Shown here: positions 11,841 to 42,217 of the stretch, one piece after another
Layout of the letters: the number at the start of each line of letters is the position of its first letter
How positions within the stretch are numbered: position 1 is the first letter of the stretch
NCBI GenBank assembly: GCA_036004685.1
Contig: DASYRE010000024.1
Span: 234 to 64,233 of the forward strand
Length of the DNA stretch: 64,000 nucleotides
DNA from: Candidatus Polarisedimenticolia bacterium
GTDB taxonomy: Bacteria; Acidobacteriota; Polarisedimenticolia; Gp22-AA2; AA152
Direction of reading: 5' to 3'
The notes under the pieces: generated by a model
Told to the model about the DNA's origin: nothing
What the model saw: the letters and a program-made list of their open reading frames with translations, nothing else
Database searches by the model: none
Translations under genes and position numbers: made by a program

Positions 11841-11865
11841 CCCCAAGGAATGACCGAAACTCGCT

Positions 11866-13983: not shown

Positions 13984-14090
13984 TTCACTCCCGCCCGCCC
14001 CCCGGGCAGCCCTCCGCACCCGCCCGCCATTGACGCGCCTGGTGAAATCCAAGAGAATCGACGGCCACGTGCCCTTCCGGAGGAGGAACC

Positions 14091-20294: not shown

Positions 20295-22622
20295 TCAACG
20301 AGGGGACGCGGCGCGGCTCCCGGAGTCCTGCGCCGGCAGGCCCGGGACCTCCCGGAAGAAAATCCACAAAGCGGCAGGGACCGCGGTGAAGCTGGCGATC
20401 ATGGAGAGGACGAAGGCGCTGGAGGAGACGAGGCCGAACTGGCGCATCGGCGGCAGGCCCGACAGCGACAGCGTGAGAAAGCCGCCCGCGTTGATGAGGG
20501 TCGCAAACAGAATCGCCCGTCCGGCGATGACCAGGGAATGGCGCAGCGCCTCCTCGGTCCCGGCCGAGCGCCGCTTCTCCTGAAAGTGGTAGAAGAAATG
20601 GATCTGATCGTTCTCCGAGGCTCCCAGGACCGTCGAGGCGATGAGAATCGTGGCGACGTTCAGCGGGATGGAGGTCAGCCGCATCACCAGGAACATCACG
20701 AGGATGGCGAACAGGGAGGGAATCATCGCCATCAGCCGGGCCGCCGTGCTCCGGAAGACGAGCAGGAACGCCACGAAAATCACCGAGGCCGTCAGCAGGA
20801 AGCTCTCGGTCAGCGTGGGCACGAGGTATTCGGCGATCTTCGCCTGCAGCAGCCCCTGGCCGACGACCATCATCCGGCATTCCCCGAGCGCGCGATGGCG
20901 CGCCGCCGATATCCTCCAGCTCGCCCGGATGAAGTCCTTGATCTCCTCGACGTGGGCGAAACCCTGCCCGTGATGAACCACCGTCATCCGCGCGTGGCGC
21001 AGGGAGCCGACGTCGACGTACGCCCGCAAGGCCGGCTCTCGCAAAAGGAGCTGCTCGAGCTGGGCGGCGAGCCCCTCCCAGGCCGAGGGCTCGTCGCTGA
21101 GCCGGTCCCCGTGGCCGGCGACGTAGCTGGACCAGCGCAGGAGCGTCGTCGGGCCCAGGACCGATCCGATCCGGGGATCGGCCTCGAGATTCCGCGCGAA
21201 CCCTTCGAGCCCCCGCAGCACCTCCGGCTCGACCACCGTCCCTCGGGTCGACTTGATCCAGATCTGGATGACCGAAAGCCCCGAGATCGCTTTTTCGAAC
21301 CGGCGGGTGTCCCGGTAGATCGGCTCGTTCTTGTCGATGTACGCCAGCGTGTCGGTCTCCGGGCGCATCGGGGCCAGGCGTCCGGGAATCCCCGTCAAGG
21401 CCGCCACGCCCGCCAGCATCAAGAAGGCGGTGGCGGGAAGGATGACGCGCCGATAGCGATAGGAGAAGGCGGGAAGCCGGTCGATCAGGCGCAGGACGAG
21501 CCGTCCCGCGGAGGTGCGCCGCCGCAGGACGGGAGTCGCGAGGGTCTTTTGCAGGGCGGGGAAGAGCGTGAACACGACGATCCAGGTCATCAGCAGGCCC
21601 GCGGCGACCCAGAGGCCCATTTCCCGAATCGGGCGGATGCCCGAGACGGCCAGCGCGCCGAAGCCGATTGCCGTCGCGAAGATCGAGGCGGTGGTCGCGA
21701 GGAACTTGTTGGAGAGGGTGAATATCTGGTGCTCGTCGACCGATCCCGCACCGGCGTGCTCGACGAACCGGGATTGGATGTACACGAGCGCGGCGGTCGC
21801 GGTGATGAGGATCGTGACCGGCACGAGGGAAGAGACGATGGTGAACGGAAATCCCGCGAGCCGCGCGAACCCGACGGTCAGCGAGACGCACACCAGCAGC
21901 GTGACGAGAAAGGCGGCCAGGGTCCTCAGCGAGCGGTAGAGGACGAAATTGATGACGACGACGAAGAGGCCGAAAAGCGGAAAGTACCGGAGGCTGGCCC
22001 GGGCGGTCTCCGATTCCAGATAGGCGTCGACGTAGGGGGATCCGACTTTGCGGATCCCCGCCAGAGGGCCCGGCGCCGCTTCCAGCGGAGCGAGCGCCCG
22101 ATCGATCGCGGCGAGCGTCTCGTTCCGCTGTCGCGCCGTTCGGACGTCGAGATCCACGACGATCCCCAGGAAGTCGGCGCCGGCGAGCCCTTGCTTTCGG
22201 AAGAGATCGGTGCCGCTCACGAACCGCCGGAACTCCTCCGGAAACCCGGGGCTCGCGGCGGAGCCGGGGTGAGCCCGGTCGTAGATGTCCAGGGCGGAGG
22301 CGCTCCGGACCCGGGGAACCCGCCCGAGGCGATCCTGGATTTCGCGGGCTCTCGAAAGCGCCGCGGGAGAAAAGGGATCCTTCGCCTCCGCGAGCAGAAC
22401 CACCTGCTCGCCTTCGGCGAAAAGACGCTGGAAAGCGATCGTGTTCCGATAGTCGGGATCGCTCTGCACGATCAGGCGGGCGATGGAATTGTCGTGCGGC
22501 ACGCGGAGGGCCAGCCCGATCGCGAACGGAACGAGGAGGGCGTAGAGCGCGAAGAACCAACCCCGCATCGCGACGACGCGGCGAAAGAGGGCCTCCAGTC
22601 TCGGAGACGAAGATCCCTTCAT
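20295..22622 (-). CDS. MMPL/RND-superfamily exporter (HpnN-like)
   Basis: 775 aa, two 6-TM bundles with intervening soluble domains, and a typical MMPL N-terminus (MRGWFFALYALLVPFAIGLALRVPHDNSIARLIV). Directly upstream of, and co-oriented with, the sulfatase-family gene. Confidence 0.75.
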   Translation of the reverse strand: MKGSSSPRLEALFRRVVAMRGWFFALYALLVPFAIGLALRVPHDNSIARLIVQSDPDYRNTIAFQRLFAEGEQVVLLAEAKDPFSPAALSRAREIQDRLGRVPRVRSASALDIYDRAHPGSAASPGFPEEFRRFVSGTDLFRKQGLAGADFLGIVVDLDVRTARQRNETLAAIDRALAPLEAAPGPLAGIRKVGSPYVDAYLESETARASLRYFPLFGLFVVVINFVLYRSLRTLAAFLVTLLVCVSLTVGFARLAGFPFTIVSSLVPVTILITATAALVYIQSRFVEHAGAGSVDEHQIFTLSNKFLATTASIFATAIGFGALAVSGIRPIREMGLWVAAGLLMTWIVVFTLFPALQKTLATPVLRRRTSAGRLVLRLIDRLPAFSYRYRRVILPATAFLMLAGVAALTGIPGRLAPMRPETDTLAYIDKNEPIYRDTRRFEKAISGLSVIQIWIKSTRGTVVEPEVLRGLEGFARNLEADPRIGSVLGPTTLLRWSSYVAGHGDRLSDEPSAWEGLAAQLEQLLLREPALRAYVDVGSLRHARMTVVHHGQGFAHVEEIKDFIRASWRISAARHRALGECRMMVVGQGLLQAKIAEYLVPTLTESFLLTASVIFVAFLLVFRSTAARLMAMIPSLFAILVMFLVMRLTSIPLNVATILIASTVLGASENDQIHFFYHFQEKRRSAGTEEALRHSLVIAGRAILFATLINAGGFLTLSLSGLPPMRQFGLVSSSAFVLSMIASFTAVPAALWIFFREVPGLPAQDSGSRAASPR

Positions 22623-22783
22623 GGGAGGGGAAGATTACACCACCGTCCCGGCGCTGTCAGGCCGGGAGGCCCGCTGTGCTAGAGTGCGCTTCGCCGCCGC
22701 GTCGGCGGCGGACTTGGCACGGGGCAGGCGATGGAGCGCTCAGGACCCGGGCGGCGCGGTCCTCGATTCGATCGGGAGCGGGG

Positions 22784-24526
22784 ATGAAGCCCCCCGGCGC
22801 CGGCCTCCCGCCCCGGCCCGACCTCGCCGCGGCGCTGCTGGCGCTCTTCGCCGCCGTGGTCCTGTTTGCCGGGCGGGCGGCGCAGCAAACCGCCGACAGC
22901 CTCGATTACGCCCTGTCAGCCCGGACGGGGCGTGAGATCTTCCATCCCCACCACCTTCTGTTCACCCCCATGATCCGGCTCACGCGCCTGCTGGTGGCGC
23001 GCGCCGGCGGCGGCGAGGATCCCGTGCTGGCCGGACAGCTTCACAATATCGTCGCGTCGGTCGTCGTCCTGCTCGCCTGCCATGCGATCGTCCGCCGATG
23101 GACCGGCTCGTCCTTCGGAGGCGTGGCCGCCGCGCTCTTGCTTCTGGCGTGCCGCGGATTCTGGCTGTATTCGACCCTGGTGGAGGTGTATCTCCCCGCC
23201 ACGGCCTGCCTCGCGCTGCTGGTCGTTCTCGTGACTCGGGAAGAGCGGCGGCCCTCCGCCGGCCGCGTCCTCGCGGGCGGCGCGTTGTTGGCGCTCGCGG
23301 TCCTGTATCACCAGCCCAGCGTGCTCTTTTGCGTCCCGCTCGGATACTGGCTCTTCGTTGCGCCGAGAGGAAAAGGATGGAAGGAAGGGGCCTGGATGCT
23401 GGGCATCGCAGGCCTGCTCGCGGCGACGGCCTACCTGCTCGCCTTTCTCGGCCCCGCCGCGCTGCGGGGAGGAGGCGAGAGTCTCGACCCCGGTCCGCCG
23501 ACGGCGGCGCGCTTCGTCCGCTTCTGCCTCGCCTATGCCTTCCATCCGGTGGCCGGATGGGGGACGGCCCGGAATCTCAGCGTCCTCGGGATAGGCCGCC
23601 TGCTGCATAGCCAATTGCGCAACGTCACCACCTTCCCGTGGTCGCTGCGCGCGCTTTTCATTCCGGGAACGGGCGTCTTCCTTCTCCTCCTCGGCGGCTG
23701 GCATCTGCGCTCGATTCGCGCCGATCGCCCCCTCAGGAGGCAACGCATCTTCCTGCTCGTCTGGATCGTCTCCTACTACCTCTTCTTTCTCTGGTGGTTT
23801 CCGGGAGAGAAGGAGTTCTTCATCACCCCGCTCCTGCCGCTCGCGCTGTTGATCGCGCTGGCGGCCATGGATCTGCGGGATCATTCCGGGGGATGGAGCC
23901 GGAGCCGAAGCCGGCTACTGATCCCGTTGAGCCTGCTTCCCGCTCTCCTGCTGGGAGCGTTGAACCTCCGCGGCACGATACTTCCCTATCACCGCTCGCG
24001 CGGCCCGGCCTATCGGGAAGCTTCCGATCTCGCCCGCGCGGGGGTGCCGGAGGATTGCTGGCTGTTCGCGGACTACACGGTCGCGGAAAACCTCCGCTAC
24101 TACTTCGCACGGGAGAAGGCGAGAGAAGGCGTGATGCCTCTTTATCATTTCTATGAGGGGCGCTCTCTTCCGCGCGAGCTCGCGGAAGCCGCCCGAGGCT
24201 GCCTCGCCATCGATCTGGAGTACGTGAATCCGGAGTTTTCCGCCGGCGACGTGGACGGGGCCCGCCAGCCGGAACAATGGTTCAGCTACCTGACATGGCT
24301 CCTCGGCGCGGAAAGGGTAGGCGGCGGCATGGCGATTCGGTCGTTCAAGATCCTGGACCTTGAAGAGGGGAAGCGATACCTGCTCCTTGCCGCCTCCCGG
24401 GAGATCGCGGAGGGCTGGCCCGGCGTCTTCCGGCGCCTCGATGCGGGCCTCCCGGGAAGGAAGGAGGGCGACGGACCGTTCTCGAGATGGCTCGAGAGAT
24501 TTTCCCGTGTCGTGTCTCGGAAATGA
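22784..24526 (+). CDS. Polytopic membrane protein, possible GT-C-type glycosyl/arabinosyltransferase (function unknown)
   Basis: About 580 aa, more than 10 hydrophobic helices, no soluble catalytic signature recognisable. Start at ATG 22784 (MKPPGAG); the upstream 36 residues of ORF 22676 are Arg-rich. Confidence 0.4.
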   Translation: MKPPGAGLPPRPDLAAALLALFAAVVLFAGRAAQQTADSLDYALSARTGREIFHPHHLLFTPMIRLTRLLVARAGGGEDPVLAGQLHNIVASVVVLLACHAIVRRWTGSSFGGVAAALLLLACRGFWLYSTLVEVYLPATACLALLVVLVTREERRPSAGRVLAGGALLALAVLYHQPSVLFCVPLGYWLFVAPRGKGWKEGAWMLGIAGLLAATAYLLAFLGPAALRGGGESLDPGPPTAARFVRFCLAYAFHPVAGWGTARNLSVLGIGRLLHSQLRNVTTFPWSLRALFIPGTGVFLLLLGGWHLRSIRADRPLRRQRIFLLVWIVSYYLFFLWWFPGEKEFFITPLLPLALLIALAAMDLRDHSGGWSRSRSRLLIPLSLLPALLLGALNLRGTILPYHRSRGPAYREASDLARAGVPEDCWLFADYTVAENLRYYFAREKAREGVMPLYHFYEGRSLPRELAEAARGCLAIDLEYVNPEFSAGDVDGARQPEQWFSYLTWLLGAERVGGGMAIRSFKILDLEEGKRYLLLAASREIAEGWPGVFRRLDAGLPGRKEGDGPFSRWLERFSRVVSRK

Positions 24527-24666: not shown

Positions 24667-27312
24667 CTAACGCGGCGGCGCAGCGGTCTTTTCGGAAAAG
24701 CGTCCGGACTCCCAATCCTCCAGCTCCCTGACCGCCTTCTCCAGGCGGCGCGTCGTCTCGGCGGGATCGGCTGCGGGATCGATGCACAGGGGCTCGCCCA
24801 GGACGAGGCGCGTCCTGCCCCGTCGCATCCACCGGGCCCCGTCGGGAAGCACTCGCGCCGTTCCTTCCACCCAGGCGGGAACCACCGGCGCGCGCAGCTC
24901 GCGGGCCAGAATGCCGATCCCTCCCCGAAACGGCGCGAGACCTCCCTCGGGAACGTGCCTTCCTTCGGGAAAGACGAGCAGCGAGAAGCCGGCGTCCGCC
25001 AGCTCTCCCGCGTAACCGAGGCTCTGGCGGAAGCCGGCGGTCTCCGGCAGCGGCCAGGCGCCGAAAAGCAGCTCCACGAGCCGCACCTGCATCGACTCGA
25101 GTGCGTAGCGGGTCCGGCCGCCGCCGGTTTCCCCGAAGAAGACGCGGTGGTGGCGCGTCGTCATCGCCGGAGCGATCCTTCCCCTCAGCAGGCGGGGAAG
25201 CGTCGCCTTGAAGAGGCCGGTGTCCAGATAGCTCCGATGATTGCAGACGAAGAGGTAGGGCGGGTCGGCCGAGCCGAGCCGTTCGAGTCCGACGACCTCC
25301 GGTCTTGCCTGCAGCAGAACGATCGGGCGGAAGACCGCCTCTTCCAGCAAGCGCCTGAACTGATGGAATGGAGAGACTCGTGCCCATCGAGGCATCCGCA
25401 AGGCGCCCGGGCGCGGCGGAGAGGGTTTCGCCGACGAAAGGGGCGCTTCGGCGTGCGCGGCTTCCGAGACACGGTCGCCTTCGGGGCGGACCGGGACACG
25501 GCCGGCGGCCTGCCGGACCGCCCGCTCCAGATCTCCCACCGTCGCCGAGGCGAGCGCCGCATCTGCCAGGACCACCCCGAATCTCTCTTCCAGCCGCACG
25601 CCCAGCTCGACGAGATCGAGGCTCGACAGGCCGAGCGCCTCGACCAGGAGCGTTCCCTCCTCGAGGCGCTCCATCCGGCTGCGGGCCACTTGCGCCACCA
25701 GACGGCGAACCTCGGCGGTGAGGCCGAACGCGCCCCCGGCGCCTTGCCCGCCGGGCGCGCGCCGCAGAGCTTCCTCCCGGACGAGGCCCTTCTTCACCTT
25801 CCCGGTGGAAGTTCGTGGAAAATCGCTCCCGGCCCAGACGGTGAAATCGCGGACCCTTTGTCTGGGCTGTAGGCGCTCGTTGGCGGCCACCACCGCCTCC
25901 TCGGCATGGCAGCCCTGCTCCATCAGAAGGACGGCATGGACGTGCTCCGCGGCCCCCTCCGAGACCCCGAGCACGCAGGCCTCGCGGACGCCCTCGGAGG
26001 GGCGGAACGCCGCTTCGACGTCGGCCGGAAAAACGTTCTCTCCTTCGGGAGTGACGATGACGTCCTTGAGCCGCCCGCGGATTCGCAGCCGTCCTTCCGG
26101 GTCGAGCTCGCCCACGTCCCCCGTGCGCAGCCATCCGTCGGGGTTCCGCGCCGCGGCCTCTCCGAAGTAGCCTTGAGTCACGTTCGGCCCGCGCACCAGG
26201 ATCTCCCCTTCGGCGCCCAGGGAGACCTCCTGGATACCGAGCGGCCGGCCGACGCCGCCAGGCCGGCGATCGAATGGATTCGAAATCGACACGATCGGCG
26301 CGGTTTCCGTCAGTCCATATCCCTGAATCACGAGATATCCGAGGCTCTCCCAGAATCGCTGGACTTCTTCCGCAAGGGGAGCGCCGCCGGAGACCAGGAG
26401 CCGGAACCGGCGCCCGAAGATTCCCGCCAGGCGCGGGAAGAGGAGGGCCTGAATCATGAAAGGCCAGCGCTCGAAGCGGGCCTGGCGCTTCTGAATCTTC
26501 TCGAGCGCCCCTTCCTCGCGCAGGAGGCGCCGGACTTCAAGTCCGAGAAGATCGAGAAGCCGGGGAACGGTGAAGAGTCCCCAGGCGCCAAGACGCCGGG
26601 CGGCCTCCCGGACCTCCGCGGGCCGCGGCGGGACGAACGCCACGCTGAGACCCATGAACAACGGCAGGAAGACGTTCATCGCCTGGCCGAACATGTGGGA
26701 CAGGGGAAGCGTGGTGAGAAAGGGAAGCGTGCCGAGGGGGCGAATCCAGCGCTCCCGCCGCTCGAACGCCCTCTCGATCGGAGCGAAGTCGGAGGCGAGG
26801 TTGCGGTGAGTGAGCACTACGCCCCGGGGCTGCCCCGTGGTTCCGGAGGTGAACACGATTTCCGCGGTTGAATCGCCCGGGGGATCGGCCCACGAAGGGG
26901 AAGAGGCTGCGTCCGGGTCCCCCCAGGAGTCCCACTCGATCCGCCGGCATCCGGGCGGCGGCGAGACGCCGGCAGGCGCCACGAGAAGGCGGCTCTTGCA
27001 GCGCCTCGCCACTTCCTCCCGGAACGAGTCGGGGGCCGACTCCTCCAGGGGGACCGCGACGCCGCCGGCGAGAAGGATTCCGGCCAGCGCTTCGACCCAG
27101 GAGGGATGGCCGGGGCCCTGAATCAGGACCGGGGCGTCGAGGCCTTCGCGGGCCAGCGTCGCCGCGCAGGACACCATGCGATCGTGGAGACAGGCGTAGG
27201 TCCGGCGGCGCCAGCGCACGCCGTCTTTCCAGAAATAGGCGGGTCGATCCGCGAAGCGGCGCAGTCGTGCCAGGCGGGCGCCGAGGGAGGTCAAGGAGGT
27301 CTCGGAAGGCAA
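24667..27312 (-). CDS. Tri-domain acyl-AMP ligase (AMP-binding) - acyl carrier protein - lysophospholipid acyltransferase (PlsC-type) fusion; Aas-like
   Basis: AMP-binding motifs (TSGTTGQPRGV; GYGLTE; TGD; TSTGKVKK), PP-binding Ser motif (EALGLSSLDLVELG), then the HX4D acyltransferase motif (FVCNHRSYLDTG) and FPEGRH block. TTG start at 27312 with GGGAGAG 8 nt upstream. Confidence 0.8.
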   Translation of the reverse strand: MPSETSLTSLGARLARLRRFADRPAYFWKDGVRWRRRTYACLHDRMVSCAATLAREGLDAPVLIQGPGHPSWVEALAGILLAGGVAVPLEESAPDSFREEVARRCKSRLLVAPAGVSPPPGCRRIEWDSWGDPDAASSPSWADPPGDSTAEIVFTSGTTGQPRGVVLTHRNLASDFAPIERAFERRERWIRPLGTLPFLTTLPLSHMFGQAMNVFLPLFMGLSVAFVPPRPAEVREAARRLGAWGLFTVPRLLDLLGLEVRRLLREEGALEKIQKRQARFERWPFMIQALLFPRLAGIFGRRFRLLVSGGAPLAEEVQRFWESLGYLVIQGYGLTETAPIVSISNPFDRRPGGVGRPLGIQEVSLGAEGEILVRGPNVTQGYFGEAAARNPDGWLRTGDVGELDPEGRLRIRGRLKDVIVTPEGENVFPADVEAAFRPSEGVREACVLGVSEGAAEHVHAVLLMEQGCHAEEAVVAANERLQPRQRVRDFTVWAGSDFPRTSTGKVKKGLVREEALRRAPGGQGAGGAFGLTAEVRRLVAQVARSRMERLEEGTLLVEALGLSSLDLVELGVRLEERFGVVLADAALASATVGDLERAVRQAAGRVPVRPEGDRVSEAAHAEAPLSSAKPSPPRPGALRMPRWARVSPFHQFRRLLEEAVFRPIVLLQARPEVVGLERLGSADPPYLFVCNHRSYLDTGLFKATLPRLLRGRIAPAMTTRHHRVFFGETGGGRTRYALESMQVRLVELLFGAWPLPETAGFRQSLGYAGELADAGFSLLVFPEGRHVPEGGLAPFRGGIGILARELRAPVVPAWVEGTARVLPDGARWMRRGRTRLVLGEPLCIDPAADPAETTRRLEKAVRELEDWESGRFSEKTAAPPR

Positions 27313-27437
27313 GCGGATTCTCTCCCGCCGCTATTCTTCCGCACCTCGCGAACGGCAGCAAGGAGGACGGGAGGGCGGCAGGGCCGGGCGCGGCCTCTTC
27401 CGGGGGCCGCGGAGCCGCGCGGCCGGACGATCCTTCC

Positions 27438-27869
27438 CTACCTGCCCGCGGCGAACTTGGAGACCTGGATCGAGTCGTCGATCACCGCGAAGCGCAGCGC
27501 CGTGTCTCCCACCCGGATGACGTCCCAATGATTCAGCTTCGATTTTTCGGAGATGCGCTTGCCGTTCAGCCGCGTGCCGTTGGTGCTCGCCAGATCGCGG
27601 AGGACGAACGCTTCCGGTCCGTACAATCCGATCTCGGCGTGCTTGCGCGAGACCTTTTCGTCCTCCAGGACGATGTCCGCGCCGGCGCGTCCGATCAGAT
27701 AGACTCCCCCGGAGGAAAGCGTGTAGACGCGGCCGCTTCCCGGCCCTTCCTCGATCCGGAGGAAGATGCCGGTGGCCGGCGAGATCAGGCCTTCCTTGAG
27801 CCGCGGGCGCGCCAAGGCGGAGTCGAGCTTCGTGCTGGCGGCGAATTCCGATTTCTTGTCTCCCATCAT
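27438..27869 (-). CDS. FHA-domain protein
   Basis: C-terminal FHA fold signature (GRAGADIVLEDEKVSRKHAEI...LRDLASTNGTRLNGKRI). GAGGAG RBS before tandem ATG ATG. Confidence 0.75.
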   Translation of the reverse strand: MMGDKKSEFAASTKLDSALARPRLKEGLISPATGIFLRIEEGPGSGRVYTLSSGGVYLIGRAGADIVLEDEKVSRKHAEIGLYGPEAFVLRDLASTNGTRLNGKRISEKSKLNHWDVIRVGDTALRFAVIDDSIQVSKFAAGR

Positions 27870-27930
27870 CCTCTCCTCATGAAGGTTGAGATTCTCTTCC
27901 CTGCGAGGCAGCGGCGCGATCGAAAGACGC

Positions 27931-29295
27931 TCAGTCCATCCTGAGCGAGACCGGGGCGCCGAGGGATCGTCCCGCGATCATCTTCAGCGTCCGGGTCTCG
28001 CCCGACCTGAGGTCGACGACGATCGAATCCTGGAAAGGAGAAGAAGCTCCCTCGGGAAGCACGCGGGCGGCCACTTCGTGCTTGCCGGGCGAGAGCCGAA
28101 TCCATCCCTCGAAAGTCTCCTGGTCGCGCCCGAGGATCTTGTTGAAGATGCCCTTCCTCGCGGCCGGCGCCAGATGCCGGGAGTAGACCTCACGCCCGTC
28201 CACCCGGAGGCTCAGGGTCCCGGCCCCGATGCTGCTGCGGGCGTCCAGCCTCAGGTGAGCGGGCCGGGAGAGATAGAAGTACCCGGTCGCGATGAGCAGA
28301 AGCGAGAAGATCGCGGCCGCCCCGAATTTCAACCCCAGGAACCTGCCGCGGCCCTTTGTCGGCTTCCTCCGGTGGGAGGCAGGCTCTGTGGCGCCGGCGG
28401 GCGCCGGAGCGGCCTGAGCCCCCTTTCCGGCCAAGTCGGGCGGCGCGGCCGGCGCCGCGGAGGCGCGCCGCTTGCGGCCGGCCTCGCGGAAGGCATCGCG
28501 AAACTCAGCGCCGTTCTTGAAGCGCTTTCCCGGATCTTTCGCCAGGGCCTGGTCGAAGAAGTCGTTGAGACGATCCGGAAAGCCGCGAACGCGGCGGGTG
28601 ATCGGGATCGGCGCGTCGTGGGCGATCGAATAAACCAAGGCGGGAAGATCCTTTCCTTCGAAGGGGCGCTCCCCGCAGAGCGCCTCGTACAGCACCGCCG
28701 CCAGCGAAAAGAGATCGCTCCGGCCGTCCAGGTCCCCTCCGCGGATCTGCTCGGGGGACATGTATGCGGGGGAGCCGAGAGACGCTCCCGATTGCGTCAG
28801 CTCGGAAGTCGAGAGCCGGGCCACTCCGAAATCGGCGATCTTCGCCGCCCCATCGGGGGCCCGCAGGAGGATGTTCGCGGGCTTGATGTCGCGGTGGATG
28901 ATTCCGGCCTGGTGCGCGACGTGGAGGGCCTCGGCCAGGAGGGCCCCGAAGCTCATGACCCAGCCCGGCTCGAGCCGATCCCCCTGCTCGAGAACCTGCC
29001 GGAGGCTGCGCCCCGGAACGTACTCCATGGCGATGTAGGAGAGGCCCAGCGAAGCGTCGTCGCCGGCGTCGTAGATCGTGACGATTCCGGGGTGGGAGAG
29101 GGAAGCGGCGGCCTGCGCCTCGCGCAAGAAACGCTCGTGGAACTCGGCGATCAGCTCCTCGGAAATGCCGTCCGGCAGAATGTAGGTTTTCAGCGCCACG
29201 CGGCGCTGCAGCCGGGGATCCTGGGCCAGATAGACGACTCCCATGGCGCCCCGCCCGATCTCGCCCTGGATGACGTAGCGTCCGATTCGCGACAT
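27931..29295 (-). CDS. Hanks-type Ser/Thr protein kinase with TM and extracytoplasmic C-terminal domain
   Basis: GxGxxG (GEIGRGAMGVV), VALK, HRDIKPANILL, DFG and SPEQ subdomains; a TM helix (AAAIFSLLLIATGYFYL) then a roughly 120 aa outside domain. Start at ATG 29295 with AAGGG RBS; the upstream 115 aa of ORF 27931..29640 are discounted. Confidence 0.8.
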   Translation of the reverse strand: MSRIGRYVIQGEIGRGAMGVVYLAQDPRLQRRVALKTYILPDGISEELIAEFHERFLREAQAAASLSHPGIVTIYDAGDDASLGLSYIAMEYVPGRSLRQVLEQGDRLEPGWVMSFGALLAEALHVAHQAGIIHRDIKPANILLRAPDGAAKIADFGVARLSTSELTQSGASLGSPAYMSPEQIRGGDLDGRSDLFSLAAVLYEALCGERPFEGKDLPALVYSIAHDAPIPITRRVRGFPDRLNDFFDQALAKDPGKRFKNGAEFRDAFREAGRKRRASAAPAAPPDLAGKGAQAAPAPAGATEPASHRRKPTKGRGRFLGLKFGAAAIFSLLLIATGYFYLSRPAHLRLDARSSIGAGTLSLRVDGREVYSRHLAPAARKGIFNKILGRDQETFEGWIRLSPGKHEVAARVLPEGASSPFQDSIVVDLRSGETRTLKMIAGRSLGAPVSLRMD

Positions 29296-29575: not shown

Positions 29576-30265
29576 GTGCTAACCTTGCTTCCGATGGAAA
29601 CCGGCAAGCTCCGGTGGGTGTCGATCTTCGCCGTGGCCATGGCCTACTTGGAAGCGGCCACCGTCGTCTATCTCCGCCGCGTTTTCGGAATCACCGACCT
29701 CATCCGGGACACTTCGCCCTACGATCCCGCGATCGCGGCGGTGGAGCTCGGCCGGGAGCTGGCGACGCTGATCATGCTGCTGGCGCTCGGCTGGGCGGCC
29801 GGGAAATCCAGGCAGTCGCGCCTGGGCTTCGCCTTTTTCGCCTTCGGCCTGTGGGACATCGCCTATTACGCGTGGCTCCGGCTCCTGCTCGCCTGGCCCG
29901 CCTCGCTGCTCTCCTTCGACCTGCTGTTCCTCATTCCGCTGCCGTGGTGGGGGCCCGTCCTCAGCCCCGTTCTGATCGCGCTGCTGTGCATGGCGGGCGG
30001 GGCCCTGACGGTTCGGGCCGAGGATCGGGGCCGGCGGTTGCGACCGCACCTGCCGGAGGGGATTGCCGCGGCGGCCGGGACGCTCGCCGTGCTCTATGCT
30101 TTCATGGCCGACGCCCTTTCCGCCCTGCCGGCCGACGCCGAGACGCTGGATCGGCTGCGGCCGGCGCCGTTCCGGTGGCCCATTTACCTGGCGGGTTTGG
30201 GGCTGCTGGCGTGGGCCGTGTGGAGAATCGTCCGACCCGCGACGCAGCCGGCCGCGGAGCGCTGA
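29576..30265 (+). CDS. Small polytopic membrane protein (6 TM), unknown function
   Basis: Strongly hydrophobic with Trp-rich helices. The stop abuts the LMF gene start (TGA-TTG), which suggests an operon. Confidence 0.4.
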   Translation: MLTLLPMETGKLRWVSIFAVAMAYLEAATVVYLRRVFGITDLIRDTSPYDPAIAAVELGRELATLIMLLALGWAAGKSRQSRLGFAFFAFGLWDIAYYAWLRLLLAWPASLLSFDLLFLIPLPWWGPVLSPVLIALLCMAGGALTVRAEDRGRRLRPHLPEGIAAAAGTLAVLYAFMADALSALPADAETLDRLRPAPFRWPIYLAGLGLLAWAVWRIVRPATQPAAER

Positions 30266-31792
30266 TTGACGCGGGGCGAGCCCTCCTCGTACTGGCTCAC
30301 CCGGTTCTTTATCCTGCGTCTGCTCGGTCTCGTCTACCTGGTCGCGTTTCTGGGCCTCGCGCTTCAGCTCGTCCCTCTGTTGGGAGAGCATGGTCTCTTG
30401 CCGATCGGCCTCTTCCTCGGCCGGGCGGAAGCCGCGTACGGAAGCCGTCTGGGGGGATTCCTCCAGTTCCCCAGCGTCTTCTGGCTCGCCTCCTCCGATC
30501 GAATCCTGCTCGGCGGGGCCTGGCTGGGCGCCGCGCTCTCGCTGGCCGTGCTTCTCGGATACGCCAACGGGATCATGCTGGCGATCCTGTGGGCCCTCTA
30601 CCTCTCGTTCGTCCACGTCGGCCAGGACTGGTACGGCTACGGCTGGGAGATTCAGCTCCTCGAGACCGGCTTTCTGGCCATCTTTCTCTGCCCGCTGCTG
30701 GACGGGCGCCCCTTTCCGCGGCGCGAGCCGGCGGCCCCCGTGCTCTGGCTCTTCCGGTGGCTGGCGTTCCGCATCATGCTTGGCGCCGGCCTGATCAAGC
30801 TGCGCGGCGATTCCTGCTGGAGGGATTTGACCTGCCTCGATTATCACTACGAGACGCAGCCGATCCCCAATCCGCTGAGCCGGACGCTGCACTTCATGCC
30901 CCGCGGATTCCAGAAGCTGGGAGTGCTGTTCAATCACCTCAACGAGCTGGTCGCTCCGTGGTTCGTCTTCGGCCCGCGCCTCGCGCGGCATGCCGCCGGC
31001 TGCCTTCTGGTCGCCTTCCAGATCACGCTGATTCTCAGCGGCAACCTCTCCTTCCTGAACTACCTCACGATCATCCCGATCCTGGCCTGCTTCGACGATT
31101 CCTTGTTTCGCAGGGTCGTTCCGGCGCGGCTGGCGGAGAAGGCGGCGCACTCCGCGGCGCGGGCGGAGGCCTCCCCGGCGCAGCGCGTCGCGGCCGTCGC
31201 GCTGGTGGCGCTGGTCGCCGTCCTGAGCATCGATCCCATCCGCAATCTCCTGTCCTCCCGTCAGGCGATGAACACCTCCTTCAACCGCCTCGATCTCGTG
31301 AACACCTACGGCGCCTTCGGCAGCGTCGGCCGTGAGCGGAACGAGATCGTCTTCGAAGGCACGAAGGATCCGATCCTCACCGACCAGACGGTCTGGAGGG
31401 AATACGAATTCAAGTGCAAGCCCGGGGATCCAAAGCGCCGTCCGTGCATCGTCTCCCCGTACCATTACCGCCTGGACTGGCAGATATGGTTCGCCGCGAT
31501 GTCGCGGCCGGAGCGCTATCCATGGACGATTCACCTGATCTGGAAGCTCCTTCACAACGATCCGGAGACCCTGGGCCTGCTCGCGGGGAATCCCTTTCCC
31601 GAGTCGCCCCCGCGCTGGATTCGGGCCGTCCTGTATCGCTACCGGTTCGCTCCGCCGGGCGATCCCGAGGGAGGCTGGTGGCGGCGGACCCTTCTCGGGG
31701 CGTGGATTCAGCCGCTGCAGTCGGAGGATCCGCGCCTGCGCCGTTTTCTCGCGGCGCACGGCTGGCTCGATCCGGAGGAAGGAGAACCGTAA
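30266..31792 (+). CDS. Lipase maturation factor (LMF1-like, DUF1222) family membrane protein
   Basis: Characteristic block YLSFVHVGQDWYGYGWEIQLLETGFLAIFLCP and C-terminal conserved region (NTYGAFGSVG...YEFKCKPGDPKRRPCIVSPYHYRLDWQIWFAA). The family assignment is from memory of LMF1 homologs. Confidence 0.6.
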   Translation: MTRGEPSSYWLTRFFILRLLGLVYLVAFLGLALQLVPLLGEHGLLPIGLFLGRAEAAYGSRLGGFLQFPSVFWLASSDRILLGGAWLGAALSLAVLLGYANGIMLAILWALYLSFVHVGQDWYGYGWEIQLLETGFLAIFLCPLLDGRPFPRREPAAPVLWLFRWLAFRIMLGAGLIKLRGDSCWRDLTCLDYHYETQPIPNPLSRTLHFMPRGFQKLGVLFNHLNELVAPWFVFGPRLARHAAGCLLVAFQITLILSGNLSFLNYLTIIPILACFDDSLFRRVVPARLAEKAAHSAARAEASPAQRVAAVALVALVAVLSIDPIRNLLSSRQAMNTSFNRLDLVNTYGAFGSVGRERNEIVFEGTKDPILTDQTVWREYEFKCKPGDPKRRPCIVSPYHYRLDWQIWFAAMSRPERYPWTIHLIWKLLHNDPETLGLLAGNPFPESPPRWIRAVLYRYRFAPPGDPEGGWWRRTLLGAWIQPLQSEDPRLRRFLAAHGWLDPEEGEP

Positions 31793-31937
31793 GGCGCGAA
31801 GGGGCGGGACGGCCTCGCGGCGCGGTTGACATTCCGGGGAAGCGCCTTGATGATCGCGCCGCCGGCGCGGCGGCGTCGCGCGGTCTCTTGACGCTCGGGC
31901 GCGCAAGCCCGGAGAACGAGGCACGAAGGAGGGCGGA

Positions 31938-33725
31938 GTGGAGATCCGGGTTCTGGGCGACATCCTGACGCAGCTGGAGCGGGATCACCCGCGGAGCGAT
32001 CTCTTCCGCTACAAGTCGGCCGGCTCGTGGCACGACATCTCCACCGAGGATTTCTTCTCGACGGTCAGGTCCCTCGCCCTGGGGCTCGAGACGCTCGGAG
32101 TCGTGAAGGGGGAGCGCGTCGCGATCCTGTCCGAAAACCGGCCCGAGTGGACCGCCTTCGATCACGCGCTGCTCAGCCTGGGCGCCGTCGTGGTGCCGAT
32201 CTACGCGTCGCTTCTCACCGAGCAGGTCCGCTTCATCCTGGAGAACAGCGAGGCGCGCGCGGTGGTCGTCTCCGGAGCCGCCCAGCTGGGGAAGCTGCGC
32301 CCCGCCCTGCCCTCCCTTCCCGCTCTCGCGCAGATCCTCATCCTGGACGCCGGCGAGACGCCGCCGGGGGACGCCGTTTCCTGGACGGCGGTCCTGGCGG
32401 CGGGCGAGGCGGCGCATCGAGCGGAGCCGGAGCGGTTCGAGGCCCGCCGCGCGGCGATCCGGCCGGAGGATCCGGCGAGCATCCTCTACACCTCGGGGAC
32501 CACCGGGGAGCCGAAGGGAGTGGTGCTCACGCACGGCAACTTCGCCTTCAACGTCAACGCGACGCTCAAGCTGATCCCCTTCTCCTCGGACGACGTCACC
32601 CTGTCGTTCCTGCCGCTGACGCACGTCTTCGAGCGCATGGTGGAATTCGCCTATTTGTCGGCGGGAGCGAGCATCGCCTACGCGGAGTCGATCGAGGCGG
32701 TTCCCCAGAACATGGCCGAGGTGCGCCCGACCGTGGTGTCGAGCGTCCCGCGCTTCTTCGAGAAAGCCCACGACCGTATCGTCTCCAACGTCCGCTCCTT
32801 GCCCTGGCCGCGCCGGCTCCTCGCCGGGCTCCTGCTGCGGGAGGCGCGCCGCCGGGCGCGCGCCCTGCTGGAGAAGCACCCGGTGCCGCCCCTCGCTCGC
32901 CTGCTCCATCCCCTCGCCGATCGCCGCATCTTCGCTCCCATCCGGGAGAAGATGGGCGGGCGGATCCGGTTCTTCGTCTCGGGCGGCGCCCCGCTCGCCC
33001 CGCGCATCGCCGAGTTTTTCTACGCCGCCGGGATCCCGATCCTCGAGGGGTACGGCTTGACGGAAACCTCGCCGGTCGTCGCCGTCAACACGCTGGAAAA
33101 GATCCGTCTCGGCACGGTCGGCCCGGTGATCCCGGGCGTGGAAGTCCGGATCGCCGAGGACGGCGAGATCCTGGTCCGCGGCCCCAACGTGATGCAGGGC
33201 TACTTCCGGAACGAGGCGGCGACCCGGGAGGCGATGAAGGACGGTTGGTTCCACACGGGGGACATCGGCGTCATCGATCCCGACGGCTTCCTGCGGATCA
33301 CCGACCGCAAGAAGGAGGTTCTCAAGACGTCCGGAGGCAAGATGGTCGCCCCCCAGCCTCTGGAGAACCTCCTGAAGTCCGACCGGGCGATCAGCCAGGC
33401 GGTCGTCCTGGGAGACCGTCGCAAGTTCGTCTCGGCCTTGATCGTTCCCGATTTCGACTGGCTTGCCTCCTTCGCCCGCGCCAAGCAGATCTCCACCAGG
33501 AGCCTGGACGAGCTCCTGCGCGATCCCCGCGTCCTCGATCTCTACCGCGCCCGGATCCGCGCGAAGATGGCGGGGCTGCCGTCCTACGAGACGGTGAAGA
33601 AATTCCGGCTCCTTCCCCGGGAGCTTTCCCAGGAGGCGGGCGAGCTGACCCCGACCTTGAAGGTGAAGCGGCGGGTCATCGAGCAGAAGTACGCGGATTT
33701 GATCGAATCGATCTACAAGGAGTGA
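31938..33725 (+). CDS. Long-chain-fatty-acid-CoA ligase (AMP-binding, FadD-like)
   Basis: YTSGTTGEPKGVVLTHGN; GYGLTETSP; TGDIG; GGKMVAPQP motifs. GTG start. Confidence 0.8.
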   Translation: MEIRVLGDILTQLERDHPRSDLFRYKSAGSWHDISTEDFFSTVRSLALGLETLGVVKGERVAILSENRPEWTAFDHALLSLGAVVVPIYASLLTEQVRFILENSEARAVVVSGAAQLGKLRPALPSLPALAQILILDAGETPPGDAVSWTAVLAAGEAAHRAEPERFEARRAAIRPEDPASILYTSGTTGEPKGVVLTHGNFAFNVNATLKLIPFSSDDVTLSFLPLTHVFERMVEFAYLSAGASIAYAESIEAVPQNMAEVRPTVVSSVPRFFEKAHDRIVSNVRSLPWPRRLLAGLLLREARRRARALLEKHPVPPLARLLHPLADRRIFAPIREKMGGRIRFFVSGGAPLAPRIAEFFYAAGIPILEGYGLTETSPVVAVNTLEKIRLGTVGPVIPGVEVRIAEDGEILVRGPNVMQGYFRNEAATREAMKDGWFHTGDIGVIDPDGFLRITDRKKEVLKTSGGKMVAPQPLENLLKSDRAISQAVVLGDRRKFVSALIVPDFDWLASFARAKQISTRSLDELLRDPRVLDLYRARIRAKMAGLPSYETVKKFRLLPRELSQEAGELTPTLKVKRRVIEQKYADLIESIYKE

Positions 33726-33748
33726 GCTTGGAGTCGAAATTGCTCGAC

Positions 33749-34516
33749 ATGCGGGAATGTGCCCGGCGGGAATTCCGGGAGATCCACAGCGAGATGCTCC
33801 GCCTGTCGCTGCTCCAACAGCCGTCGTGGTTCCGGCCGCTGCTCCACCGGAGCCGCCGTCTCAAGAGCTACACGGGACACGATCACTGGTCCCGGGCCTG
33901 GGAGTATCCGTGGGCGATCCTGGCGGCCGATCTGGGCGGCCGGCCCTTGAGGGTGGCGGACATCGGGGGCGGCGGCAGTCCTTTCGCGCTCTATCTGGCC
34001 CGGCACGGCCACGACTGCTCGGTCGTCGACCCTTCGCTGAACGAAGGGGCGGGATGCGTCTACGACCAGCGAAAGAGCCTCGGCGCGAACCTCCGCTCGA
34101 TGAGCAAGAAAGTCCTGTTCCGCGCCGCCGGAATCAACTCGGTCTGGGGACTCCCCGAGGCGGGCGGCGACGATCGCATCCGGTATCACGCCGATCCGGC
34201 CGAGGCCCTGCCCTTTCCCGACGGCCATTTCGATCGCGTCTTCTGCCTGAGCGTCATCGAACACATTCCCTCCGAGCTCTGGGCCGGATGCGTGAAGGAG
34301 TTCCAAAGGGTTCTGCGCCCGGGCGGCCGGCTCGTGATCACGCAGGACATGACGCCCGAGGAGGCCAACGCGCGCGTCTATCTGAAGCTGGTGGAGGCTT
34401 GCTCCCTCGAGCTCGTCGGCGACCCCCATTATCCGGTCCCTCTCGACCCGGGACAGCAGAGGCTCCGGCATCCCGGACAGGGATACGAGACGATCGGCCT
34501 CGTCTGGCGGAGCTGA
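33749..34516 (+). CDS. Class I SAM-dependent methyltransferase
   Basis: Motif I (VADIGGGGSPFALYLARHGHDCSVVD), acidic loop, motif (FDRVFCLSVIEHI) and (PGGRLVIT). The start could also be GTG 33722 overlapping the ligase stop (GTGA). Confidence 0.65.
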   Translation: MRECARREFREIHSEMLRLSLLQQPSWFRPLLHRSRRLKSYTGHDHWSRAWEYPWAILAADLGGRPLRVADIGGGGSPFALYLARHGHDCSVVDPSLNEGAGCVYDQRKSLGANLRSMSKKVLFRAAGINSVWGLPEAGGDDRIRYHADPAEALPFPDGHFDRVFCLSVIEHIPSELWAGCVKEFQRVLRPGGRLVITQDMTPEEANARVYLKLVEACSLELVGDPHYPVPLDPGQQRLRHPGQGYETIGLVWRS

Positions 34517-34691
34517 TTGCCCGGCGCCAGGCTCCTCGAGACGCCCGCGCACGATCCGCTCCTCAGGATGCCGCGCGCGGCATACCCTCACGACGTCCCG
34601 GGCTCTGAGGTATACAATGACTCCCCTTCGGCCGGAGGATCGGTCGATCACGTAGTCACCTCCGCGGGGCGACCCGCATCGAAAGGAGATT

Positions 34692-35387
34692 ATGAAACCC
34701 ACCGTCGGCTCGCTGGTCCTCACGGCGATCCTTGCCCTCTTTGGATGCGGATCCGGCTCGCATAGCACGAAGGGTTCGGATCCGAAAACGGAGCAGGACA
34801 AGACCTTCTACGCTCTCGGCCTTCTGGTTGGCGCCAATCTGACCCAGTTTTCGCTCACGCCCGAGGAGATGGAGTTCGTCAGCAAAGGCGTGGCGGACGC
34901 CGCCGCCCATGCCAAGCCCCAGGTCGATCTCCATGTCTACGGCCCCAAAGTCCAGGAGCTGATGAAGGCGCGGGCCGGAGCCTCGCTGGCCGCCGAAAAA
35001 CAGAAAGCCGCCGCCTTCCGCGAAGGCGCTGCGAAGGAGGAGGGCGCGCAGAAAAGCCCGTCGGGCCTCGTCTACCGGACGCTCAAGCCGGGCACCGGCG
35101 CGACTCCCACGATGACCGACACGGTCAAAGTCCATTATCAAGGCGCGCTCCCGGACGGCACGGTCTTCGACAGCTCGATTCAGCGCGGCCAGCCGGTGGA
35201 GTTTCCGCTGAACGCCGTCATTCCCTGCTGGACGGAAGGGGTCCAGAAAATGAAGGTGGGGGAGAAGGCCAAGCTGATCTGTCCTTCGGAAATCGCCTAC
35301 GGCGATCAGGGACGTCCGCCTCAGATTCCCGGCGGGGCGACGCTGGTCTTCGAGGTCGAGCTGCTGGACATCGTCAAGAAGCAGTGA
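34692..35387 (+). CDS. FKBP-type peptidyl-prolyl cis-trans isomerase, lipoprotein
   Basis: Lipobox (LALFGCGSG), FkpA-like helical N-domain, and FKBP domain (VHYQGALPDGTVFDSS...GGATLVFEVELLD). GAAAGGAG RBS. Confidence 0.8.
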   Translation: MKPTVGSLVLTAILALFGCGSGSHSTKGSDPKTEQDKTFYALGLLVGANLTQFSLTPEEMEFVSKGVADAAAHAKPQVDLHVYGPKVQELMKARAGASLAAEKQKAAAFREGAAKEEGAQKSPSGLVYRTLKPGTGATPTMTDTVKVHYQGALPDGTVFDSSIQRGQPVEFPLNAVIPCWTEGVQKMKVGEKAKLICPSEIAYGDQGRPPQIPGGATLVFEVELLDIVKKQ

Positions 35388-37273: not shown

Positions 37274-37419
37274 GGTCGTCTCCTTTGTGCAGAGTCCAAT
37301 GGCGGATTCAGATCGTCCGACGCTCGATTCCGGAGCCGTGAGGCCCCAGTTAACCATGAGACGCGCCCGCGGGACAACCTCCGGTTGACGCGCTCCTTCG
37401 AGGACGGCACACTTCCTTC

Positions 37420-42060: not shown

Positions 42061-42217
42061 TCCATTCTCCTATTCAAACGGGCGGATGCGGCTTTCGGTC
42101 CGGTGGCTCGGTGAACTCGTCCGTCTATACGCTCGCCACCGATCGGATGGATTGCATCGTTCGGCGTGATGCCGATAAAATCGCCTGCCGGCCTTCGCAC
42201 CCATCCAAAAGGGGCCG

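Follow-up and report, generated by a model that had tools for sequence, protein, structure and literature searches.

The 64,000-nucleotide stretch of DNA analysed here (the window) encodes an 881-residue protein that joins an acyl-activating domain, an acyl carrier domain and a lipid acyltransferase domain in one chain. We consider this protein, with a probability of about 60%, to be a self-contained enzyme of fatty-acid salvage and acylation. In the mechanism we propose, the N-terminal ANL domain would adenylate a free fatty acid, and the acyl group would pass, as a thioester, to the phosphopantetheine arm that the built-in carrier bears on Ser564. A 30-residue flexible linker would then allow the acyl-carrier to meet the C-terminal PlsC-type acyltransferase. 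With its HX4D dyad, this domain would esterify the acyl group, on the cytoplasmic side of the inner membrane, onto a hydroxyl of the membrane lipid that serves as acceptor. The chemistry of each domain can be read from the sequence; for the substrates we infer a fatty acid and, as the likeliest acceptor, a lysophospholipid or other glycerolipid. The first-pass annotation had described the same domains downstream of kinase and FHA genes and had proposed that these regulate the enzyme; its observation is confirmed, and its interpretation is partly supported.

Domains and conserved residues of the 881-residue protein

The ligase gene (24667..27312, minus strand) starts with a TTG codon; the sequence GGGAGAG (27320-27326, minus strand), 8 nt 5' of this codon, is its likely ribosome-binding site. 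A Pfam scan bore out the domain order read in the first pass: AMP-binding at residues 17-383 (26164..27264; E 9e-56), PP-binding at residues 534-599 (25516..25713; E 2.5e-7) and Acyltransferase PF01553, a PlsC/LPLAT-type domain, at residues 672-815 (24868..25299; E 1.2e-11). AMP-binding_C, the C-terminal subdomain of the adenylation domain, gave a weak match at residues 432-505 (25798-26019). All of these features lie on the minus strand, as do the motifs that follow.

Residue conservation was assessed in an alignment of 31 homologues, which are 36-88% identical to the protein from the window. In the adenylation P-loop TSGTTG (26833-26850), T155, S156, G157 and T159 are invariant and T158 and G160 vary; the A10 lysine, K505 (25798-25800), is invariant. 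The phosphopantetheine-attachment residue Ser564 (25621-25623), the second serine of the motif LGLSSLDLVEL, which resembles helix II of E. coli ACP, is likewise invariant in its LGLSSLD context, as are H692 and D697 of the HX4D motif (25222-25239) and E783 and G784 of the FPEG motif (24961-24972) in the acyltransferase domain. The carrier serine and the HX4D motif, on which the first-pass annotation had rested its assignment, are thus both in place.

The nearest PDB relatives of the adenylation domain are FadD13, malonyl-CoA synthetase and MenE, and those of the carrier domain are free ACPs. The acyltransferase domain, whose best solved match is Thermotoga maritima PlsC (5KYM, E 2.4e-6), belongs to the LPLATs but is divergent, with ~28-30 bits on Aas and AGPAT models alike, so that its sequence does not fix the acceptor class. 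Hydropathy analysis found no transmembrane helix in the protein, which is therefore probably peripheral, like Aas. An AlphaFold2 (AF2) model (pLDDT 80, pTM 0.82) has pLDDT <50 in a Pro/Ala-rich, putatively flexible linker between carrier and acyltransferase (residues 605-636; 25405..25500, minus strand). Among the best Foldseek matches to this model are thiolation-state A-PCP didomains (3rg2, 5es8), and the earlier idea of self-contained activation, carriage and transfer is plausible. For the related ElbD, acyltransferase activity could not be demonstrated in vitro (PMC9131029).

Family distribution and neighbouring genes

The fusion is one of many in an uncharacterised family that occurs throughout Acidobacteriota, the source of most members, and in some Geobacter-type and other bacteria. 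The three-domain architecture is common to >100 clusters, and a search with the ACP-acyltransferase module gave 1273 representatives at E≤1e-10, of which 109 reached E≤1e-30; full-length matches to the module were 800-940 residues long and carried it at the C-terminus. The architecture is not new. FAAL-like/acyltransferase fusions were noted by Patil et al. (eLife 2021; PMC8460268), and ElbD-like proteins without a reductase domain have been mentioned (PMC9131029; bioRxiv 10.64898/2026.06.23.733905). Across the phylum the ligase gene usually stands alone among unrelated genes: the most frequent neighbour family occurs in at most 15 of 89 loci, and the commoner neighbours (IF-1, a DEAD-box helicase, 2-oxoglutarate dehydrogenase E1) are unrelated to the ligase. 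One locus (L083) has a patatin phospholipase gene directly upstream.

Within the near clade, the gene that accompanies the ligase most persistently, more so than the kinase and FHA genes, is that of an MMPL/HAE3-type RND transporter. The window copy has 775 residues (20295..22622, minus strand; Pfam MMPL; NCBIfam HAE3, 162 bits). The transporter gene is directly downstream of the ligase in relatives L086, L087 and L091, and close to it in the window, L081, L088 and L092, divergently so in L088 and L092; the link is confined to relatives with ≥61% identity. The recurrence of this transporter suggests that the enzyme's substrate or product is carried through the inner membrane or released from it. 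A nearby MFS gene, compared with LplT, was not LplT-like.

Upstream of the ligase in the window lie the two genes on which the operon proposal was built, and their co-orientation and gaps were as first described: the minus strand carries all three, with 61 nt between kinase and FHA genes and 125 nt between FHA and ligase genes. The first encodes a 454-residue Hanks-type Ser/Thr kinase (27931..29295) with a Pkinase domain at residues 7-259 (28519-29277; E 8e-45), intact GxGxxG, VALK, HRD, DFG and SPE motifs, one predicted transmembrane helix (residues 320-342; 28270-28338) with a basic stretch just before it, and a 112-residue C-terminal extracytoplasmic domain (27934-28269) that has no Pfam match. 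A longer kinase open reading frame, to 29640, was rejected, since it would overlap a divergent gene and relatives have kinase calls of 454-461 residues. The second encodes a stand-alone FHA protein of 143 residues (27438..27869), with the FHA domain at residues 57-121 (E 4e-18), a 35-residue N-terminal tail and no transmembrane helix, a layout like that of GarA/OdhI or FhaB; GarA and OdhI are small FHA proteins that regulate enzymes through direct binding. NCBIfam scores of the FHA protein (FhaB/FipA 61 bits, OdhI 39 bits) were under cut-off, and no NCBIfam cut-off was reached by the kinase either. The two genes are probably co-transcribed with each other.

Comparison of the FHA-ligase gap among relatives revealed a promoter-like element (27333..27361, minus strand) consisting of TTGCTG (27356-27361), 17 nt and AAGAAT (27333-27338). 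It matches the sigma-70 consensus at 7/12 positions, below the threshold of a generic promoter scan, which hence missed it. The corresponding motif, TTGnnn-N17/18-[AG]A[GC]AAT, 27 nt upstream of the ligase start, is kept in five loci (the window, L081, L086, L087 and L091), and between the window and L081 the gap shows 91% identity in its 3' 65 nt, as against 67% in the 5' half. Because the motif is conserved, also in the two of the five loci where the gene directly preceding the ligase is read from the other strand, the ligase gene probably has its own promoter.

Alternative readings of the locus

The operon proposal of the first-pass annotation, that a membrane kinase senses the envelope through its ectodomain and switches Aas-like lysophospholipid re-acylation through the FHA adaptor, appears unlikely. 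The proteins would suit it, the kinase being catalytically intact and membrane-anchored with an ectodomain, and the FHA protein small and GarA/OdhI-like. No terminator-like site was found in either gap, so that read-through from the FHA gene into the ligase gene could occur, and in four loci (66-88% identity) a kinase-FHA pair lies no more than 2.2 kb from the ligase. However, the conserved promoter-like motif weakens the operon, and direct adjacency of the three genes is limited to the window and one 88% relative; other genes intervene in the relatives at 68% and 66% identity, and at 69% the arrangement has decayed. Two genes separate FHA and ligase in both L091 and L087; the one adjoining the ligase runs opposite to it in L091, and both do in L087. 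In L086, which keeps the ligase-MMPL link, the kinase breaks off at residue 240 and the FHA gene is missing. Seven further loci, with eight sequence records and 55-62% identity, lack an FHA gene, and so do 80 loci from distant genomes; nor was an adjacent kinase-FHA pair found at ≤62% identity or in those 80. Moreover, the kinase gene is equally consistently divergent from a conserved gene for a 229-residue membrane protein, and may therefore serve that side instead. The kinase and FHA genes are lineage-specific neighbours, not a proven regulator of the ligase; given the ligase's probable promoter and the lineage-limited adjacency, phospho-regulation of the enzyme is possible but unsupported.

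The transporter raises a different prospect. MMPL/HAE3 proteins, such as the mycobacterial MmpL proteins and HpnN, export lipids. The enzyme might accordingly make a specialised envelope lipid (an acylated glycolipid, aminolipid or hopanoid-like lipid) for MMPL/HAE3 export to the outer membrane, instead of repairing bulk phospholipid. The contiguity of ligase and transporter genes in three relatives agrees with this, as do the glycosyltransferase genes that follow the transporter in L092; in the window, a PMT_2 (GT-C) glycosyltransferase gene (22676-24526, plus strand) between transporter and ligase, and a gene for a membrane-anchored, LtaS-like sulfatase-family protein in the same cluster, would belong to the same envelope-modification locus. 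We nevertheless regard this as doubtful: the mostly solitary ligase gene suits a general membrane-lipid role better, the transporter is missing in 5 of 12 near-clade loci, and PMT_2 is restricted to the lineage of the window. Very improbable, in our estimate, is an ElbD-type enzyme for alkyl-ether or neutral lipids whose reductase is supplied in trans. Myxococcus xanthus ElbD does combine a ligase, an ACP and an AGPAT-like acyltransferase with a FAR-like reductase, and split elbD genes, like the ElbD-like proteins without FAR, have been reported in other phyla, Acidobacteriota among them (PMC9131029; bioRxiv 10.64898/2026.06.23.733905). Yet no NAD_binding_4/FAR-like, ElbB-like (HAD) or ElbE-like gene lies beside the ligase in the window and near relatives, the best 150 representatives of the ACP-acyltransferase module are all too short to hold a reductase domain, and a module without reductase is limited to making esters.

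Relation to known systems

Fatty-acid salvage and acylation, our preferred reading, can be set against several known systems. With a membrane Hanks kinase, a small FHA protein, an MMPL transporter and an acyl-activating enzyme encoded close together, the locus recalls the mycobacterial regulation of lipid enzymes and MmpL transporters by Hanks kinases and FHA proteins, and the small FHA switches of GarA/OdhI type; the resemblance is one of gene proximity alone, and the association is not conserved. ElbD, by description, has the same ligase-ACP-acyltransferase core in the same order; it is tied to ether lipids, which the window module alone could not make, and the elbB, elbC and elbE neighbours are absent around the ligase. 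Among unusual, uncharacterised architectures in bacteria, one survey (PMC8460268) counts a fatty-acid-adenylating domain joined to an LPLAT. The window adenylation domain, however, fits CoA-ligase types (FadD13, MatB, MenE; E 1e-28 to 1e-33) better than the FAALs FadD23 and olefin synthase (E ~1e-16), and the ~34-residue spacing between GYGLTE and GEILVRG would leave no room for the FAAL-specific insertion.

The predicted fold and arrangement match NRPS/PKS adenylation-carrier loading didomains (EntE-EntB, the LgrA initiation module; Foldseek E ~1e-27), with an rmsd of 5.2 Å over 653 columns between the AF2 model and LgrA in the thiolation state. They differ in that the window acceptor domain is a PlsC-type lipid acyltransferase, not a condensation or ketosynthase domain, and in that the carrier resembles the ACPs of fatty-acid synthase.

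E. coli Aas, a bifunctional 2-acyl-glycerophosphoethanolamine acyltransferase/acyl-ACP synthetase that works with the flippase LplT, is likewise a peripheral membrane protein in which a fatty-acid-activating ANL domain and an HX4D LPLAT domain are united; the adenylation domains are 27% identical (E 3e-26) and the FPEGR block is common to both. The reversed order and embedded carrier that the first pass had set against Aas were correct: our scan of Aas placed Acyltransferase at 15-137 and AMP-binding at 233-568, with no PP-binding domain. On the NCBIfam Aas equivalog models the window protein scores 110-130 bits, against cut-offs of 1221-1349. Aas takes free holo-ACP (PMC11416262), whereas the window protein has its carrier built in. 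In close relatives the ligase gene is followed by a transporter gene, as in aas-lplT, the partner being an RND/MMPL transporter in place of the MFS protein LplT.

The ligase–carrier–acyltransferase fusion and its family

Three co-oriented genes lie on the minus strand of the window, encoding a Ser/Thr kinase of 454 aa (29295-27931; Pkinase), an FHA protein of 143 aa (27869-27438; FHA) and an 881-aa fusion of ligase, ACP and acyltransferase (27312-24667; AMP-binding, PP-binding and Acyltransferase), with intergenic gaps of 61 nt (kinase-FHA) and 125 nt (FHA-ligase). ORF analysis and Pfam thus confirmed the three co-oriented genes of a first-pass annotation, which had not given the strand. Because the G+C content of the window is 65-70%, many ORFs are spurious, and real frames were distinguished by third-position G+C. 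The kinase ATG at 29295 is preceded by an AT-rich stretch and AAGGG; a longer ORF reaching 29640 was set aside because it overlaps the divergent gene at 29576 and because the gene is called at 454-461 aa in relatives.

The 881-aa protein matched AMP-binding (PF00501) at residues 17-383 with 189.8 bits, AMP-binding_C weakly at 432-505, PP-binding (PF00550) at 534-599 with 31.3 bits (Pfam gathering score 20.8) and Acyltransferase (PF01553) at 672-815 with 45 bits (gathering score 23). Residue invariance was scored in an alignment of 31 sequences. In the adenylation domain, T155, S156, G157 and T159 of the P-loop TSGTTG, GYGLTE at 331-336, TGD at 397-399, G413, R414 and K416 of the A8 motif and the A10 lysine K505 were all invariant, so that the P-loop, the A5, A7 and A8 motifs and the A10 lysine of ANL enzymes are all present. 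The carrier serine, Ser564, was likewise invariant and lies in the context LGLSS*LDLVEL (G-x-x-S-L-D), closely resembling helix II of E. coli ACP; the domain fits the acyl/peptidyl carrier type, with Ser564 as the predicted phosphopantetheinylation site. Both the HX4D dyad (H692 and D697) and the FPEG block (E783 and G784) that mark the LPLAT/PlsC-type superfamily were invariant in the acyltransferase domain. The PP-binding serine and the HX4D motif that had been read from the sequence alone are therefore both in place.

The AlphaFold2 model of the protein (pLDDT 80, pTM 0.82) has a disordered linker at 605-636, and the structures it matched best were ANL ligases and didomains of adenylation and carrier type, among them EntE-EntB and, in its thiolation state, the LgrA initiation module. 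In sequence, T. maritima PlsC (5KYM) was the nearest match of the acyltransferase part, and free ACPs were those of the carrier. Hydropathy analysis gave no transmembrane helix.

Among 5.8 billion proteins searched, over 100 clusters, 36-100% identical, shared all three Pfam domains; the named clusters were labelled Acidobacteriota and, among the matches listed, the closest were from Candidatus Polarisedimenticolia. Species-representative genomes held at least 591 relatives. The best 80 of these, which align to query residues ~20-864, came almost all from Acidobacteriota (Vicinamibacterales, Terriglobia, Bryobacterales, Thermoanaerobaculia), the others including Geobacter/Geomonas and small numbers of bins from Chloroflexota and Actinomycetota. 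With the ACP-acyltransferase half as query, 1.84 billion representatives at 50% identity gave 109 matches at E≤1e-30 and 1273 at E≤1e-10, the full-length matches being 800-940 aa with the module C-terminal. The window gene thus joins a large family, already noted in the literature and biochemically uncharacterised. Its value lies in the size of that family and in the biochemistry so far lacking, which would give a function to a gene present in a large share of Acidobacteriota genomes. Acidobacteriota are abundant soil bacteria whose membrane lipids serve as climate proxies.

The kinase, the FHA protein and the gene neighbourhood

The kinase has all the Hanks motifs (GxGxxG at residue 14, VAxK at 33, HRD at 134, DFG at 155 and an APE-like motif at 180) and a Pkinase score of 153.7 bits, as expected of a Hanks-type enzyme. 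The protein also contains a basic stretch, a single transmembrane helix (320-342) and a 112-aa ectodomain at its C-terminus, bearing out the extracytoplasmic domain claimed for it, although this ectodomain had no Pfam match even at E≤5. The FHA protein, in which no transmembrane helix is present, is like FHA proteins of the small stand-alone type; it scored 61 bits against FhaB/FipA and 39 bits against OdhI, both below the NCBIfam cut-off. The 61-nt gap and a ribosome-binding site (GAGGAGAGG) suggest that the kinase and FHA genes are co-transcribed.

The first-pass annotation had extended this unit to a kinase-FHA-ligase operon, and here comparison of 12 near-clade loci, the window counted, went against it (percentages are identities to the window protein). 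The three genes are contiguous only in the window and in L081 (88%). L091 (68%) and L087 (66%) have the kinase-FHA pair, separated from the ligase in L091 by a GGDEF-PilZ gene and an opposite-strand gene and in L087 by two opposite-strand genes. In L086 (69%) the kinase (8599-9641) shows 82% identity through residues 1-240, where the gene stops, and neither the transmembrane/ectodomain part nor an FHA gene was found there in any frame; the truncation may reflect decay of the pair or an assembly artefact. L088 (61%) and L092 (62%) have neither gene, and L093, L089, L094, L085 and L083 (55-62%) have no FHA gene and no adjacent kinase, the TPR-type kinase ~3 kb downstream of the L083 enzyme being unrelated and on the opposite strand. 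Among the 80 distant genome loci (the best 80 of at least 591 relatives), none had an FHA gene and four had kinases, all at least 6 kb from the ligase.

The FHA-ligase gap itself points the same way. Between the window and L081, its 3' 65 nt are 91% identical and its 5' half 67%. The conserved part holds TTGCTG-17 nt-AAGAAT, 27 nt before the ligase start codon, and TTGnnn-N17/18-[AG]A[GC]AAT also precedes the ligase in L086, L087 and L091; 0.006 copies of the exact heptamer GAA[GC]AAT would be expected in 260 nt. The gene immediately upstream of the ligase in L087 and L091 lies on the opposite strand, so that there the ligase must have its own promoter, and the window ligase very probably has one as well. 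Some read-through from the FHA gene may occur, because no terminator was detected in the gap. A generic scan returned neither promoters nor terminators in the intergenic gaps, and RNA structure in the FHA-ligase gap was no more stable than in shuffled sequence (z = 0.83). Just after the FHA stop codon lies a GC hairpin with a perfect 7-bp stem and no U-tract (GGCCGCG-N6-CGCGGCC; 27400-27425, minus strand); it was rejected as a conserved element because it is absent from the 88% relative.

The gene content and domain architecture of the first-pass annotation therefore stand and its operon is not supported, given contiguity in only two of 12 near-clade loci and a conserved promoter-like motif inside the gap. 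The adjacency of the kinase-FHA pair to the ligase is lineage-specific, with a probable internal promoter, and this pattern argues for a link that arose through accidental gene order within a single lineage; it would matter only if shown experimentally.

A target of the kinase could equally lie on its other side. The kinase is divergent from the gene for a 229-aa multi-pass membrane protein without a Pfam family in the window, L081, L086 and L087, and in L091 its divergent neighbour is a similar gene of 224 aa, an arrangement consistent with such a target. In the window this gene belongs to a plus-strand cluster of five (29576-35387), whose other members encode an FKBP isomerase, a SAM methyltransferase (~33728-34516), a fatty-acid-CoA ligase of FadD11-like type and a bacterial counterpart of LMF1, the lipase maturation factor of eukaryotes, to which it is homologous (PF06762 and PF25179, E 1e-60). 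A FadL-like Toluene_X gene takes the place of LMF1 in L086. At 11854-13983 (plus strand) the window encodes a hybrid histidine kinase, which combines a CHASE sensor with a receiver domain at its C-terminus and is also found near the locus in L081. Two further window genes, for a DUF4331 protein (40435-42069, minus strand; E 1e-102) and a rhodanese-methyltransferase (TehB-like) fusion (37360-38286, plus strand), are apparently unrelated to the tri-domain enzyme.

Partners were also sought by all-against-all clustering of the ORFs from 89 loci. No family occurred in more than 15 of them, and the frequent neighbours (IF-1, a DEAD-box helicase, 2-oxoglutarate dehydrogenase) were unrelated. Because of this and of the absence of FHA genes from the distant loci, the enzyme stands alone across the family, and a single partner recurs, in the near clade only: an MMPL/HAE3 RND transporter (22622-20295, minus strand, in the window; Pfam/NCBIfam). 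The transporter gene directly follows the ligase in L091, L087 and L086, is one gene away in the window and L081, is divergent in L088 and L092, and is missing from the other five loci (L093, L089, L094, L085 and L083). The intervening window gene, a PMT_2 (GT-C) glycosyltransferase (22676-24526, plus strand) found in the window lineage only, seems to have been inserted into what was once a ligase-MMPL pair, since the two are directly adjacent in relatives at 66-69%. Beyond the transporter lies a 683-aa sulfatase-family protein (20190-18139, minus strand), in which eight or nine hydrophobic segments at the N-terminus are combined with a sulfatase/phosphodiesterase domain, a layout like that of LtaS/EptA; in L092 the transporter is followed by GT4 and GT2 glycosyltransferases. 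A SAM methyltransferase directly precedes the tri-domain gene, by 11-26 nt, in L088 (9150-9989) and L092 (7135-7974). A link to the window methyltransferase was rejected, as the two share the SAM-binding motif only and are not orthologous.

Proposed reaction and lipid acceptor

As the motifs of all three domains are intact and invariant, the most likely mechanism is that the ligase would adenylate a free fatty acid, probably long-chain to judge from the nearest ligases, and load it onto the phosphopantetheine arm at Ser564; the flexible linker would then allow delivery to the HX4D acyltransferase, which would esterify it to a membrane lipid on the inner side of the cytoplasmic membrane.

A lysophospholipid is the favoured acceptor, by analogy with Aas and because of the FPEGR block, the patatin gene upstream in L083 and the solitary position of the gene in most genomes. 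This gene, for a patatin-like phospholipase of 754-770 aa (L083, 7605-9917; L084, 7653-9917; a 55% relative), ends 84 nt before the tri-domain gene and has its orientation; such a pairing would fit a cycle of deacylation and re-acylation. A serious alternative is that the product is a specialised exported lipid, as the link of the ligase gene to the MMPL transporter would suggest. A composite scheme for the near clade would have the enzyme, with its own carrier, re-acylate lysolipids independently of CoA and ACP pools in a form of membrane repair or remodelling unlike LplT/Aas, physically coupled to the MMPL/HAE3 transporter and, in the window lineage, subject to post-translational gating by a Hanks kinase that senses the envelope and works via a GarA-like FHA protein. 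Taken whole, this scheme, which includes the envelope sensing of the first-pass annotation, seems very improbable.

Comparison with Aas and ElbD

The favoured lysophospholipid acylation recalls E. coli Aas, and the differences are substantial. Pfam places Acyltransferase (15-137) before AMP-binding (233-568) in Aas, the opposite of the order in the window protein; Aas has no PP-binding match and uses free holo-ACP, whereas the window protein has a built-in carrier at 534-599. The contrast drawn at first reading, reversed order and embedded carrier, thus held for both proteins. The adenylation domains are 27% identical, and the FPEGR block is common to both enzymes. Against the NCBIfam Aas equivalogs the window protein scored 130.5 bits for PRK06814 (cut-off 1349) and 109.6 bits for PRK08633 (cut-off 1221), with only the adenylation part covered. 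The C-terminal half alone scored ~30 bits against Aas and ~28 bits against AGPAT models, and a subfamily call was rejected because these scores do not discriminate. This domain is a divergent LPLAT, whose acceptor is not readable from sequence, and the resemblance to Aas is one of shared mechanism, not of family membership. No LplT-like gene was found at the window locus; an MFS gene (14046-15380), also close to the locus in relatives, was rejected as LplT because it shows no similarity to E. coli LplT and looks like a peptide transporter.

The adenylation-ACP-acyltransferase architecture is not new and is mentioned in three sources. Patil et al. (PMC8460268) list fusions of a FAAL-like domain and a lysophospholipid acyltransferase as an unexplained bacterial architecture. 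The nearest solved relatives of the window adenylation domain are CoA ligases, not FAALs, and its motif spacing, taken by itself, suggests that the FAAL-specific insertion may be absent. In a review of myxobacterial plasmalogen synthesis (PMC9131029), ElbD is described as a FAR-like reductase, an acyl-CoA-synthetase-like ligase, an ACP and an AGPAT-like acyltransferase; nearly all ElbD-like homologues of other phyla lack the reductase, and the acyltransferase activity of ElbD could not be demonstrated in vitro. Split elbD genes (reductase and adenylation-ACP-acyltransferase) are reported from Poribacteria and soil Acidobacteria in a 2026 preprint (bioRxiv 10.64898/2026.06.23.733905).

By Pfam, a FAR-like reductase is absent from the 881-aa protein and its window neighbours, and the best 150 relatives of the ACP-acyltransferase module are at most 940 aa. 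No elb-like neighbours (elbB, elbC, elbE) were found in the window; a gene in 11 of the loci L002-L080 (for example L047, 8915-9823) shares with ElbA/ElbE of the myxobacterial ether-lipid operon an annotation class, a likeness of annotation alone. Compared by its published description only (PMC9131029), ElbD (MXAN_1528) has the same core as the window protein, ligase, ACP and AGPAT-like acyltransferase in the same order, and characterising the family would also shed light on ElbD's acyltransferase half.
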